Source: a virus (taxonomy: Duplodnaviria; Heunggongvirae; Uroviricota; Caudoviricetes). Taken from it: a stretch of DNA of 33,734 nt. A program made the translations under genes and the position numbers. A model generated the notes under the pieces. The model was not told the DNA's origin and ran no database searches. It worked only from the letters and a program-made list of their open reading frames with translations. Location of the stretch: IMG/VR virus record IMGVR_UViG_2778261657_000006, positions 1 through 33,734 of that record. The stretch is one strand, 5' to 3'. Below, in pieces: positions 1-4,030 of this stretch (positions are counted from its first letter, which is position 1; every line of letters begins with the position of its first letter).

Positions 1-75
1 AAAACGAGTATTTTTAGTCATCCTGTTTACCTCTTTCTCAGGAAGTTTAGTCTCCAGGATTCCCGGGGCGGTTCA

Positions 76-1152
76 GTGAGTATGGCTAACGCCTGGCTCA
101 GATTATGGCATGACATGCCAAATGACCCTAAGTGGCGAACAATTGCCAGGGTGTCAGGGCAGCCAATTGCAACAGTGATGGCAGTGTATATCCACCTCCT
201 GGTGAGTGCGTCACGAAATGTCACGCGAGGTCACATTGATGTCACGACAGAAGATTTGGCAAGTGCACTCGACGTGACAGAGGAGGTAATTGATTCAATT
301 TTGCAGACGATGCAGGGGCGGGTACTTGATGGTGATTTAATCACTGGATGGGAAAAACGCCAGGTGCTGAAAGAGGACAACGGCAATATTTCGCAAACCG
401 CAAAATCTCCGGCAGAGCGCAAGAGGGCGCAGCGAGAGAGGGAAAGAAAGCGGGAACAAAATGGCGATTGTCACGGCGAGTCACGAAATGTCACGCACAT
501 GTCACGACGAGTCACGACAGATAAAGATACAGATAAAGATACAGATCAAGAAGATCAAAACACTATGGTCCATGGCGTAAAAAACGCCACGAACCAGGCA
601 GGGGATGCTCAGACCGTCAATCTTGGTCAGCCAGCAGGCACGACACCGGAAGCCGACTCAGCGTATGCGCTGAAAGCCGATTCGGGCGCTGTGCAGCAGG
701 TGATGACCGCAAGGCAGGAGCAATCACACCAACTTCAGCAGCCTGAAGCCGATTCCGCCATTCAGCGGGAAGCCGATCGGGTAGTCCCGGAAAACACCGG
801 GCAGCCTGTGGGACGAGTGGATTATCCTGATGTGTTCGAACAGGTCTGGCGGGAATACCCGTTGCGTGCCGGGGCAAACCCGAAGAAATCCGCTTTCAGT
901 GCCTGGAAAGCCAGATTACGCGAGGGGGTGCCACCAGAGGCCATGCTGGATGGTGTGAGGCGTTACGCAAGATACCTGGCGGCTACCGGGAAAACGGGAA
1001 CGGAATTTGTTCAGCGAGCGACGACGTTTTTGGGACCGGACCGGAATTTTGAGAACCCTTGGTTGCTCCCGGCAAGCGGCACGAACAACCAGCGTTGTGT
1101 GAATCATATTTCTGAACCGGATAACGAAATTCCGCCGGGCTTCAGGGGGTAA
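76..1152 (+). CDS. Putative phage replication initiation protein (O-equivalent; C-terminal region resembles the YdaU/DUF1376-type replication domain)
   Basis: 358-aa ORF. The coding sequence contains two clusters of 10-bp-phased TCACG repeats and an adjacent AT-rich tandem repeat, as in lambda where ori lies inside O. Basic KR-rich linker in the middle and a conserved-looking C-terminal domain (YPDVFEQVWREYP...GPDRNFENPWLLP). Start may be GTG at 76 or ATG at 82. Family assignment from memory, not searched. Confidence 0.55.
   Translation: MSMANAWLRLWHDMPNDPKWRTIARVSGQPIATVMAVYIHLLVSASRNVTRGHIDVTTEDLASALDVTEEVIDSILQTMQGRVLDGDLITGWEKRQVLKEDNGNISQTAKSPAERKRAQRERERKREQNGDCHGESRNVTHMSRRVTTDKDTDKDTDQEDQNTMVHGVKNATNQAGDAQTVNLGQPAGTTPEADSAYALKADSGAVQQVMTARQEQSHQLQQPEADSAIQREADRVVPENTGQPVGRVDYPDVFEQVWREYPLRAGANPKKSAFSAWKARLREGVPPEAMLDGVRRYARYLAATGKTGTEFVQRATTFLGPDRNFENPWLLPASGTNNQRCVNHISEPDNEIPPGFRG
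211..246. repeat. Iteron-like cluster 1: four TCACG/TCACA motifs phased at 10-11 bp (putative origin iterons)
   Basis: Direct reading: tcacgaaatg tcacgcgagg tcacattgat gtcacgacag, with motifs starting at 211, 221, 231 and 242. Confidence 0.5.
471..520. repeat. Iteron-like cluster 2: five TCACG motifs phased at 10-11 bp
   Basis: Direct reading: tcacggcgag tcacgaaatg tcacgcacat gtcacgacga gtcacgacag, with motifs at 471, 481, 491, 502 and 512. Cluster 1 is nearly a copy of part of this cluster. Confidence 0.55.
520..557. repeat. AT-rich tandem repeat (gataaagataca x2, then gatcaagaagatca) flanking iteron cluster 2; candidate DNA-unwinding element
   Basis: Direct reading. Encodes the DKDTDKDTDQEDQ low-complexity stretch inside the replication protein. 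Confidence 0.4.
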
Positions 1153-1192
1153 GTGTTAATTTCTGGTCATGAGGTAATTTTCAGGAGGGCTT

Positions 1193-1468
1193 GTGGCAAA
1201 AGTTTTTACACAAGAAGAGCGGGAAAAAATTAAAGGGCAGGTTGTTAAGCTAGTACGCCAGAGTGGGCGAGAGACGCTACGGCAACTGGAAGCTAAAACA
1301 GGTGCGACAAGATATCTGATGAGCGTTCTTGCCAGAGAGCTGGTTGCGAGCGGTGATGTATACAACTCTGGCTACGGGTTATTCCCGTCTGAACAGGCTC
1401 GTAAGGACTGGCAAAACGCCCGCAAAAAAACTCTCGAGGGCAAAGCTGAAGAAACCATCTGTGGTTGA
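1193..1468 (+). CDS. Hypothetical small protein (91 aa), possibly DNA-binding
   Basis: GTG start preceded by AGGAGG at about 6 nt. Basic, helical-looking sequence. An overlapping ORF in another frame (1329..1616) makes the local gene model ambiguous. Confidence 0.4.
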   Translation: MAKVFTQEEREKIKGQVVKLVRQSGRETLRQLEAKTGATRYLMSVLARELVASGDVYNSGYGLFPSEQARKDWQNARKKTLEGKAEETICG

Positions 1469-1730
1469 TCCGGACCTTATCTGGTCATTACCAGACGGAG
1501 AAATACGTCACTATGACAGGCGTCTAAACATAATCCGTCGCGAGTGCCGGAAGAGCGAAGTTATGCGGCGTGTGTTGAACTTTTATCATACCAGTAATAA
1601 GAAATTGGTTCGGTAAATGAAATTAAAGTGTATTGACTCAGATGTGAGGTAATATGTCTATGCATATAAACACTTTGTATGCATGTTGTGTTATTTTTAG
1701 TATGATAGAGTGTGTCAGATTTCTTATGAT

Positions 1731-1760
1731 TAAAAACAACCCTCAATAGAGGGTTGTTAC
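1731..1760 (-). terminator. Rho-independent terminator (bidirectional hairpin) immediately 3' of the OLD-family gene
   Basis: Perfect inverted repeat aacaaccctc-aata-gagggttgtt (1735-1758) followed by a T-run on the minus strand (plus-strand taaaaa at 1731-1736). Confidence 0.55.
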
Positions 1761-1788
1761 TAAATAATATTTATTACAACATTAAAAA

Positions 1789-3600
1789 TTAAAGGATCCA
1801 GATTTCAGGATTCTTTAGCGTCTCAATTTGGTTTTTATTACTGGCATAAAATGCATGATACATGTCTATCATTTTTTCGTTGGAGCTGATAAAAACAGAT
1901 GGATCTTTGTTTAAAATTCTGCTATATGTATCAAATATTGCTTTGTATTCTGGTGTTAAATTATTAGATAGAACTGATGTTACTGTCTCAACTTTGTTTG
2001 ATGGATTGAAATTTTTAAAAAACAGTCCTTCGAAATGAGGTATTTGAATAAATACCATTGGTTTTTTACTTTTAGAGCATTCGTTCATTATGGATACATT
2101 TGAACCCCATGCTCCATTACCTGAAACGCTTCCTTGCTTTAAGCATTTTGGAATGTCGGAGTCATGTACTGCTATATACTCAACGTTAAATTGATTTAAT
2201 ATTTTAGCAAATGTTTTTATATTCCCTTTTCCTAAACAGTCAATGATATGATAATCAACTCCGACAATATCACATATTTTGTTAATGACGATTTTTTCAG
2301 TTGGGCCTTCAACTAATATTATATTGTCGTAAAAGAAAAACTCATTAACCATTGGGTTGCATAATCTTATCATTTTCATATTATCTTTTTCCTCTTCAGA
2401 AAAAGATAGTTCATCTGTAGATATTGTTTTATTTAGCGATTTGTCTTTTTCTATCCTAATTATAGTCGTGTGCTTCTTGGATAAGTCTATGAATACAGGG
2501 GAGTGTGTTGTAGCCATCACCTGCCAGTTATCATTGTTTGCTGCAAAATCATAAAGCGAGTCCCTCGCACTTCTAATTATAGGAGGGTGAAGAAATGATT
2601 CAGGCTCATCAATCAATAAAATATATTGTTTTTTCTCAACAGAGATAGGCTTACCTTTCGCTTTTTTTATTTTATCTCGTGCATGAGATTCGTGAGTCAA
2701 AATTTGCAAAGCAGACCATAAAACGGAGCGGCGAACACCGTGACCTTGGTTCTCGAGAAGAGAGCTATTTATCCCATCCATTTTCACTGTAAGGTTAGAT
2801 TCTGAAACCATAACATCCGCATCTACGGGATCCTTGGAAAGTATGTTTAATTCCAGTTCTAGCCCAGGAAAAACAGATGATGATGATTTGGAGACCTGCT
2901 GTAGAAGATCATCGATTTTTGATTTGGAATCTTTCATAAGAGTGTCTGTCAACTCTTGTATTTTCTGTATTATATCAGCTTTACTTTCCCCTGTTTTCAG
3001 TAACTCATCTTTTGCATCTTCCTTTAAGAAACTTATGATAATTTTTTTAGTTTCATCCATGGATTTATCTGGGCTTATTCTTATTGGTTGAGGAACTCGA
3101 CTTTGTAGTAGTGTGTCAAGTCCCCCAGAGCCCCCATCAATAAATATGCGTTTGCCAGAGGCATCATCAAGGCCATAGGATTGTTTTTGGGCTGCTTTTT
3201 CTGGATGTGACCAAACCCATTTAACACAATAATAGAGTTTGCTTTCCAATGGGGTATTATTTTTCTCCCAATCTCCCCCATACTTTCTTGCCATATTTCT
3301 TCTGTCAAGAGCATCATCTTTATAAAACCATTTCTCTCCCCCTAATGTACGAATATCATCATCAGTGATATCAGTGAAAATTCCGCACATTTCAATTGGT
3401 ATAGATATATCTGAGTTATAAAAATCATGAGCAGTCAGGCCTTTTGCTGATCCTAAAGATGCAAACTTTTCATACGCATCTAATATTGTTGACTTTCCAG
3501 AGTTATTTGGACCAATTAGCACAACTATATCATCGATATATACTTCTATTTCATCTTTTATCGACTTGTAATTTTTAATATTAAATTGCTGTAGCTTCAT
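1789..3600 (-). CDS. OLD-family (overcoming lysogenization defect-like) ABC-type ATPase fused to a TOPRIM nuclease domain; candidate anti-phage defence / exclusion protein
   Basis: 603-aa ORF. N-terminal Walker A GPNNSGKST (aa 30-38), Walker B/D-loop LLIDEPESFLHP, H-loop ATTHSP. C-terminal TOPRIM signature ILVEGPTEK (conserved Glu, about aa 431) and HDSD (DxD, about aa 480; codons around 2161-2169). Very AT-rich compared with the flanking phage genes. Candidate TATAAT -10 upstream and a hairpin terminator downstream. Confidence 0.8.
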   Translation of the reverse strand: MKLQQFNIKNYKSIKDEIEVYIDDIVVLIGPNNSGKSTILDAYEKFASLGSAKGLTAHDFYNSDISIPIEMCGIFTDITDDDIRTLGGEKWFYKDDALDRRNMARKYGGDWEKNNTPLESKLYYCVKWVWSHPEKAAQKQSYGLDDASGKRIFIDGGSGGLDTLLQSRVPQPIRISPDKSMDETKKIIISFLKEDAKDELLKTGESKADIIQKIQELTDTLMKDSKSKIDDLLQQVSKSSSSVFPGLELELNILSKDPVDADVMVSESNLTVKMDGINSSLLENQGHGVRRSVLWSALQILTHESHARDKIKKAKGKPISVEKKQYILLIDEPESFLHPPIIRSARDSLYDFAANNDNWQVMATTHSPVFIDLSKKHTTIIRIEKDKSLNKTISTDELSFSEEEKDNMKMIRLCNPMVNEFFFYDNIILVEGPTEKIVINKICDIVGVDYHIIDCLGKGNIKTFAKILNQFNVEYIAVHDSDIPKCLKQGSVSGNGAWGSNVSIMNECSKSKKPMVFIQIPHFEGLFFKNFNPSNKVETVTSVLSNNLTPEYKAIFDTYSRILNKDPSVFISSNEKMIDMYHAFYASNKNQIETLKNPEIWIL

Positions 3601-3650
3601 TACATGTATCCTTTTTCTGTTCGGAGTGGCACTTGCTAGTGCAAACTAAC

Positions 3651-3685
3651 ATTATAAAAGAATAAAGTGATAGTCTTTTTATTAA
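3651..3685 (-). promoter_or_regulatory. Candidate sigma70 promoter for the OLD-family gene
   Basis: Perfect TATAAT on the minus strand (plus-strand attata at 3651-3656) about 50 nt upstream of the ATG at 3600. The -35 element is weak and AT-rich. Not validated. Confidence 0.3.
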
Positions 3686-3800
3686 CACTGGGGCGTATCG
3701 TGATACATGTTATGTAAATGTTGCTTATCTCTTTCCTTTTATATGATTTGCTGTTATTTTTAAATGCCGAAGGCTTCCATATGTTTTTATCTCAGTTATC

Positions 3801-3846
3801 ACTATCTTTGATAGTTCGTGTGCATGCGCAGTTTCTTTGAAACTGC
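3801..3846. promoter_or_regulatory. Two adjacent palindromes (actatc-ttt-gatagt at 3801-3815; gcagtttc-ttt-gaaactgc at 3828-3846); candidate operator sites
   Basis: Direct reading of perfect inverted repeats in the AT-rich intergenic region between the divergent OLD-family and hok genes. Confidence 0.3.
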
Positions 3847-4030
3847 AGATATCCGCTCTTTACCCAAACGGACAGACAGATTTGTGTTATGCCAACGCAG
3901 AGCGTCGATGGGGAAATAGTATAATAAATGAAAGTTGTTAGTGTCGGATGGGCGTCGTTAACAGGATTTGAGAAAATGAATTTAATTGTTGTTATTGTTC
4001 TTATGGTTCGCCTTTCTGATTGATTTCATG

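Follow-up and report, generated by a model that had tools for sequence, protein, structure and literature searches.

The viral record IMGVR_UViG_2778261657_000006 carries, at one end of the 33.7 kb stretch of DNA analysed here (hereafter the window), a plus-strand gene at 82..1152 for a replication initiator of 356 residues, and inside that gene lies a series of short repeats that an original prediction had likened to the replication origin within gene O of phage lambda. The enclosing open reading frame (ORF) spans 76-1152; the annotated start in intact relatives is the ATG at 82, and the product matches phrog_3729 ('replication initiation protein') at E = 2e-255 and bears the NCBI name 'phage replisome organizer'. 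An AlphaFold model with a mean predicted local distance difference test score (pLDDT) of 60, confident only in the two domains (72-93), divides the protein into a predicted N-terminal helical domain (residues 1-127), a disordered linker (128-243) and a C-terminal domain (244-356). In the intact phages vB_EcoS-640R1 and Tritos, and in a related Escherichia coli prophage, the gene order runs repressor, cro, cII/YdaT, initiator, lygF (DUF977), which on synteny gives the initiator gene the position held by O in a Rac/Qin-like lambdoid early-right operon. The repeats all fall within 82-1152, as had been stated: an array of iterons at 210..246 (array 1), a single inverted copy of the same motif on the minus strand at 273..278, a further array at 470..516 (array 2), an A-rich, purine-biased tract at 517..565 and an inverted repeat at 566..596. 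We consider it likely, from comparison of these elements across many loci, that the iterons and the A-rich tract are the origin from which a lambdoid prophage of the Rac/Qin kind replicates vegetatively, placed within the very gene that encodes its initiator.

Both strands of the window were searched for the hexamer GTCACG, of which it holds 24 copies. Nine of these fall within 210-516, eight on the plus strand (starting at 210, 220, 241, 470, 480, 490, 501 and 511) and one on the minus strand, against 0.14 copies expected per 320 base pairs (bp) from the density outside (Poisson P = 6e-14). Array 1 comprises the copies at 210, 220 and 241 together with a GTCACA at 230-235, and array 2 the five copies from 470 onwards, so that the two arrays together hold nine GTCAC(G/A) copies, four and five respectively, all in direct orientation within their arrays. 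The original prediction had placed TCACG at each of these sites and was exact throughout save at 231, where the letters read TCACA; the helical phasing that it proposed is borne out by spacings of 10/10/11 bp in array 1 and 10/10/11/10 bp in array 2. Its distance of about 260 bp between clusters likewise agrees with the 260 bp that separate the array starts, although its description of such an arrangement as unusual does not stand, since two arrays are the norm within this initiator family. Array 2 runs directly into the A-rich tract, where Tandem Repeats Finder recovers the AT-rich tandem repeat already remarked upon as a 12-bp unit, ACAGATAAAGAT, in 2.9 copies at 517-551 (95% matches), followed by CAAGAAGATCAAAACAC. 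The tract has a GC content of 27-29%, compared with 54% for the gene, and is 71% purine on the top strand; by nearest-neighbour duplex stability, the weakest 40-bp segment anywhere in positions 1-1700 begins at 521, and the tract is proposed as the DNA-unwinding element. At sequence level, the architecture is one of two arrays of a GTCACG core phased at approximately one helical turn.

The arrays are overprinted on protein sequence in a manner that identifies the level at which they are constrained. Copies of the hexamer stand in codon phases 3, 1, 2 and 1 in array 1 and 2, 3, 1, 3 and 1 in array 2, and are read variously as SR, VT or (C/G)H. Like peptides do stand at both places (SRNVTRGH..DVTT and ESRNVTHMSRRVTT), and the original prediction had itself raised the prospect that the repeats merely reflect a duplicated peptide motif (SRNVT...VTT) with no function as DNA. 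This reading retains practically no probability and is excluded by the frame and synonymous-site analyses, because the motif is read in three frames: spacings of 10 and 11 bp are not multiples of three, and one hexamer encodes SR, VT and CH/GH in turn. Codon choice is forced, in that 20,000 synonymous recodings of the initiator protein yielded on average 0.88 GTCACG copies and never more than six, compared with eight observed. Synonymous sites are frozen inside the cores: among 14 diverged relatives sharing the array-1 register, third-codon positions within GTCAC cores were 99% conserved compared with 61% elsewhere, and fully invariant in 83% of cases compared with 10% elsewhere. In other iteron classes, furthermore, the peptide differs whilst the periodicity of the DNA is retained. 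Constraint on the repeats acts at the level of the DNA and not of the peptide.

That a coding sequence should tolerate such cis-acting elements is accounted for by where they fall in the protein. Array 1 encodes residues 43-55, which close a helix (29-49) and continue into a loop of the N-domain modelled with low confidence (pLDDT below 50 at residues 48-51), a site that tolerates insertions and deletions, those of relatives being 7-15 residues long. Array 2 encodes residues 130-145, the first of the disordered linker, and array 2 and the A-rich tract together account for residues 130-162 at the start of that 115-residue linker in the AlphaFold model.

Distant relatives were gathered by exact-protein look-ups, a scan of species-representative genomes, annotated phages and scans of viral contigs; the first viral-contig scan gave only relatives of 97-99% identity, useless for covariation, and scans with distant queries were used instead. 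Removal of near-duplicates left 89 non-redundant loci from phages of alpha-, beta- and gammaproteobacteria, with hosts that include Escherichia, Shigella, Serratia, Scandinavium, Aeromonas, Pseudomonas, Stenotrophomonas, Entomomonas, Bordetella, Aquitalea, Chromobacterium, Castellaniella, Pseudothauera, Janthinobacterium, Ralstonia, Sphingobium and Novosphingobium. The comparison with phages carrying related initiators that had been called for thus finds both arrays and the A-rich tract recurring, at consistent places in the gene: array 1 typically at nucleotides (nt) 129/139/149/160 and array 2 around nt 340-460. Successive iterons are again about one helical turn apart, with 121 of 166 spacings equal to 10 bp and 32 equal to 11 bp. 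Five iteron cores occur across the loci (TCACG, TGACG, TAACG, GAACG and CAACG), and when each array region was assigned to a class independently, the two arrays of a locus fell into an equal class in all 74 callable cases (29 TCACG, 4 TGACG, 6 TAACG, 26 GAACG and 9 CAACG). Random pairing gave a mean of 22 class matches and a maximum of 39 in 100,000 permutations. Array 2 was found in 81 of the 89 loci, and two loci carry array 1 only. The suggestion of a bipartite array therefore gains support, both arrays being conserved and of one class in every callable locus.

A comparable regularity attends the A-rich tract. When duplex stability was computed in 40-bp windows for 28 loci, the least stable window of the gene started, in every one of them, at an offset of about -4 to +13 bp relative to the point where the final array-2 iteron ends; a single apparent outlier (L101) was due to a stray motif, with a corrected offset of +12. 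The repeat unit of the tract varies between loci, as (GATAAA)n, (ACAGAT)n or (AGAAGA)n, and so too does the encoded peptide (DKDT, EEKR and others), and what remains constant is low GC (0.27-0.47) and a purine bias on the coding strand. Among 80 close E. coli relatives the iterons are nearly fixed at 4+5, and the 12-bp unit of the tract ranges from two to four copies.

Variation in copy number was also observed further afield. A 21-nt insertion within array 1, adding seven residues ('TCHGVSR') and two iterons, is present in L088, L114, L240, L242 and L247 and in proteins P0003, P0022 and P0057 (E. coli, E. albertii and others), and some have up to nine iterons in array 2. P0020 (302 residues) has lost the greater part of array 2 and of the A-rich tract to a deletion. 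The tract of the window contains two GATC (Dam) sites, at 544-547 and 553-556, and at least one GATC occurs in the corresponding tract of several relatives (L083, L084, L085 and L116); given a GAT-rich unit, these could be there by chance.

Common to the loci are only the first ~140 residues of the initiator; C-terminal halves and downstream genes vary, the neighbours in relatives being DnaC-like, lambda-P-like, DnaB-like or primase-helicase genes, or including no annotated loader or helicase nearby. Where the N-domain is kept with another C-domain or loader (L114, L115 and L116), GTCACG is retained: L114 joins a matching N-domain to a PF17948 DnaT-like C-domain beside a lambda-P-like gene, and has 5+5 GTCACG copies. 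L113, in which a different N-domain is fused to a C-domain of the window type, has no GTCAC at all. In the gene concerned (2501-3586 of that locus, protein P0047) there are instead GAAGGGGCT-like repeats, spaced 11 bp apart, at two places (gene nt ~185-207 and ~450-472), and the two-array logic may extend to this other initiator family. Judged from such natural exchanges, the motif tracks the N-terminal domain and is tied neither to the C-terminal domain nor to the helicase or loader next door, and for this reason we infer that the N-domain binds it. An analysis of the mutual information that links iteron class to residues of the N-domain was uninformative, its top columns being encoded by array 1 (residues 42-56) or possibly overlapping array 2 in short-linker relatives (residues 114 and 117), and recognition residues cannot be named.

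The original prediction left out two further elements, one of them the inverted GTCACG at 273-278 (repeat-search hits I9/I10). Its GTGAC core is kept throughout the 14-locus alignment, including L094, where the encoded peptide differs, and an inverted 5-mer of the locus's own class (CGTGA) is present in 23 of 32 TCACG-class loci. It is largely missing from the GAACG (3/30) and TAACG (1/6) classes; the inverted copy is therefore class-specific, not universal. The other is the inverted repeat TGGTCCATGGCGT-AAAAA-ACGCCACGAACCA at 566..596 (hit I18), which follows directly on the A-rich tract, has 13-bp arms with 11 of 13 positions paired, and was equalled in none of 200 shuffles. Hairpins stand at the matching place in about 10 of 28 relatives, some related to that of the window (L084, L085, L086 and L113) and some unrelated (L089, L095 and L097), so the feature, at most a candidate part of the origin, is not universal. 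The hairpin scores as terminator-like on the minus strand, and was the sole element to exceed shuffle expectation in a promoter and terminator scan. By eye, the stems of L089 and L097, and the stem termini of the window and L085, differ on both arms in such a way that pairing would be preserved.

Identification of the initiator by family is less straightforward. Pfam returned no family for the window protein or for its N-domain, and no Phage_rep_O hit in the window protein and 32 relatives, by which membership of the lambda O family is ruled out and the expectation that this protein differs from lambda O is confirmed. The model TIGR01714 (phage_rep_org_N, SPP1-type) gives a weak match, collinear over its full length, to residues 5-125 (E = 0.015; 15.5 bits compared with a cut-off of 49.8), and matches in 6 of the 32 relatives with a best E of 9e-4, so that homology of the N-domain to this family is sub-threshold. 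At the other end of the protein, a tail encoded at 1075..1149 (+) matches positions 155-179 of NF002770 DnaT at E = 5e-4, and its last 17 residues, VNHISEPDNEIPPGFRG, almost reproduce the C-terminal end of E. coli DnaT, INSVSEPDNHIPPGFRG (PDB 6aep, residues 71-96). Only these last ~25 residues match DnaT. Membership of the DnaT family was considered and rejected, there being no PF17948 hit in the window protein and a probability of 0.1% from hhalign against PF17948-bearing relatives, by which method the globular C-domain is not detectably DnaT-like; a significant profile match to DnaT structures was probably driven by the PF17948-bearing members of that alignment. Downstream, lygF is the first gene, and no loader gene is annotated within ~4 kb in the window lineage. 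In this lineage, which has no adjacent helicase-loader gene, the tail may mimic a motif for interaction within the host primosome, and it hints at the use of host primosome factors.

Several known systems offer a framework within which this arrangement can be understood. In lambda and Shiga toxin (Stx) phages the origin is situated midway along O, where an AT-rich tract succeeds the iterons, and the O protein grows longer when iterons are added (PMC7466680). The locus described here is alike in that its candidate origin occupies the part of the initiator gene that codes for an interdomain linker, in the succession of tandem iterons, AT-rich tract (the putative unwinding element) and inverted repeat, in the addition or removal of residues as iteron number changes, and in the corresponding slot held by the gene in a lambdoid early-right operon. 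The lambda-like layout originally suggested is supported by that slot, by the constraint at the level of DNA and by the least stable duplex beside array 2 in 28 of 28 loci; whatever an origin within its initiator gene would lead one to expect of the sequence is found. Iterons bound by lambda O are about 19 bp long with internal dyad symmetry, and iterons of that kind were not found, whereas an array followed by an AT-rich tract within an initiator gene was: here a core of 5-6 bp recurs every 10-11 bp as direct repeats, in contrast to the larger, dyad-symmetric lambda sites. Further differences from lambda are an unrelated initiator family, a second array inside the region coding for the putative DNA-binding domain, and the absence of a following P gene in the window lineage.

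In the Bacillus phage SPP1, oriL lies inside gene 38, and gp38 also binds a second site, oriR (PMC5737612, PMC6316719). The resemblance here, drawn at the level of sequence, lies in direct repeats and an adjacent AT-rich candidate unwinding element embedded in the gene of an organizer that is not an AAA+ protein, in a second set of repeats (array 1 would be bound as gp38 binds oriR), and in the NCBI name; the match to TIGR01714 is weak and collinear but below the cut-off. In SPP1 some 13 kb (about 13 kb) separate the two sites, and here the arrays stand about 210-260 bp apart in one gene; the hosts are Proteobacteria, and partner helicases and loaders vary. Iteron plasmids (P1 incC/incA, F ori2/incC, R6K and pSC101) similarly combine direct repeats beside an AT-rich tract with a nearby second array, although their iterons are of 17-22 bp at a spacing of about 22 bp, intergenic, bound by Rep_3/WH-type proteins and usually accompanied by DnaA boxes. 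Where plasmids have a second iteron array it serves copy control or handcuffing, and array 1 is possibly analogous. The sequence features of a generic iteron origin are to be seen at this locus, with multiple direct and helically phased sites that are constrained as DNA and co-vary with a linked initiator. The layout is thus one known from other phages; what sets this case apart is an unstudied initiator family and a conserved, co-varying second array in the coding region of the putative DNA-binding domain.

A mechanism consistent with these observations would have the N-terminal region of the initiator bind the iterons, with the oligomer arrayed along a single face of the helix. Array 2 (470-516), proposed as the core initiator-binding array, would with the A-rich tract (517-565) form the core origin, binding and supercoiling together opening the tract, after which the C-terminal part of the initiator would recruit the helicase. 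In relatives this recruitment could proceed via the adjacent DnaC-like, lambda-P-like, DnaB-like or primase-helicase gene product. Since the ~4 kb downstream contain no annotated loader gene, host factors would presumably be used in the window lineage, possibly via the DnaT-like tail. Array 1 (210-246), 210-260 bp upstream, would be a second binding array for the initiator, and is most likely an auxiliary or control element that acts through cooperative looping into one nucleoprotein complex, or as a barrier to forks or transcription together with copy control. It appears dispensable, because in some relatives array 2 and the A-rich tract occur without it.

Several observations count against an origin at this locus, or limit the confidence that can be placed in one. 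No DnaA boxes were found near the region. A DNA-binding fold for the N-domain lacks firm support, the TIGR01714 match being below threshold, and a Foldseek search of the AlphaFold model against the PDB returned nothing below E = 1, only vague winged-helix or sigma-like matches. The loci compared are kin, and their covariation amounts to about five class states that are not phylogenetically independent; seven loci have array 2 only and six have neither array. The copy in the window is without its upstream expression signals and may never fire. A search of open-access papers and preprints found no publication on iterons or an origin in this initiator family; papers on the Eru-type replication regions of Stx phages mention neither iterons nor this family, and the literature on Rac oriJ gives no sequence-level information.

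Against this background, other functions for the arrays must be weighed. As autoregulatory operators or roadblocks they might throttle transcription of the early-right operon, with the true origin elsewhere: the sites lie inside a transcribed gene downstream of the early promoter, the two arrays could loop, and iteron-type initiators are commonly autoregulators, as is known of plasmid Rep proteins. We regard this as unlikely, for it leaves unexplained the least stable duplex beside array 2 in all 28 loci and a conserved, A-rich and purine-biased tract whose unit and peptide vary, and no other GTCACG cluster occurs in the flanks of intact relatives; an operator role can nevertheless accompany origin function, particularly for array 1. 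It is very unlikely that the arrays serve some other factor, be it a host protein or a phage protein such as LygF/DUF977, YdaT/CII, a terminase or a partition protein. The case for it is that the downstream DUF977/LygF is a predicted DNA binder; yet neighbours differ while the motif stays constant (Pseudomonas P7869, Aeromonas pAEv1818 and E. coli loci that have a lambda-P- or DnaC-like gene alongside), hosts cover three proteobacterial classes, the motif class tracks the N-domain lineage, and exchange of the N-domain removes the motif. A slighter chance still attaches to the repeats being mainly recombination substrates for domain shuffling, or for insertions and deletions, in mosaic replication genes. 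The family is indeed strongly mosaic exactly at the junction of N- and C-domains, and repeat copy number is polymorphic. Recombination would account for such variation and not for the strict core, orientation and helical phasing, nor for the co-switching of array 1 inside the N-domain, and is more plausibly a by-product.

Beyond the likely origin, a more specific proposal is advanced tentatively, as one that we find possible and hold in some doubt: that the arrays form a functional bipartite origin specific to this initiator family. Array 1 would be overprinted in three frames on a loop of the DNA-binding domain and array 2 on the linker beside the unwinding element; their specificity would have switched jointly at least four times (among TCACG, TGACG, TAACG, GAACG and CAACG), giving orthogonal origin-initiator pairs that govern the compatibility of co-resident prophages, and array 1 would serve as a looping enhancer or as a fork-barrier or copy-control site, in analogy to oriR of SPP1 or the inc arrays of plasmids. 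Possibly, too, the window lineage taps the host primosome through its DnaT-mimicking tail. The initiator family is common in prophages of E. coli, Shigella and Shiga toxin-producing E. coli (one cluster at 90% identity has 5,786 members, and 1,438 clusters match at E <= 1e-5), and is found also in phages of Pseudomonas, Aeromonas, Ralstonia, Bordetella and others. A likely origin placed at base-pair resolution, with five natural specificity classes, lends itself to testable constructs for the study of phage replication, prophage induction and incompatibility between prophages, and could supply orthogonal origin-initiator pairs for engineering. It is also a clear case in which protein sequence, across three frames, is dictated by a DNA element that acts in cis.

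The window copy itself has fared less well than its iterons. Its first 75 bp (1..75), adjoining the replication gene, are the terminal 75 bp of an IS629/IS1203 (IS3-family) insertion sequence; the IS629 ends of many Stx phages match window positions 1-76/86 at 96-100% identity, and similarity to intact phages begins at position 76. The insertion sequence stops 6 bp before the initiator ATG, so that promoter-proximal sequence has been replaced and the Shine-Dalgarno sequence partly lost at the junction, weakened from GAAGAGGTGAGTATG to GGTTCAGTGAGTATG (GAGGTGA to CAGTGAG). Because IS629 took away both promoter and ribosome-binding site, the initiator of this copy is probably silent, though its iterons are intact, and the origin in the window is probably a fossil. 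Within lygF ('Ren-like exclusion protein', 1193-1616), the run of A at 1424-1430 has seven letters compared with six in two relatives, a +1 frameshift that splits the 140-residue product into a 91-residue ORF and an out-of-frame remainder; the gene is either a pseudogene or the victim of a sequencing error. Taken with the loss at the insertion-sequence junction, this frameshift suggests that the window copy belongs to a decaying lambda-like prophage. An Rfam search of positions 1-4000 returned no RNA family. On the opposite strand, just past the replication module, a gene of 603 residues at 1789-3600 (-) is annotated as an ATP-dependent nuclease in relatives and may be a defence-type nuclease of the OLD family; positions 1-4000, nuclease gene included, were matched over at least 80% of their length in only 4 of 5,426 complete E. 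coli genomes.

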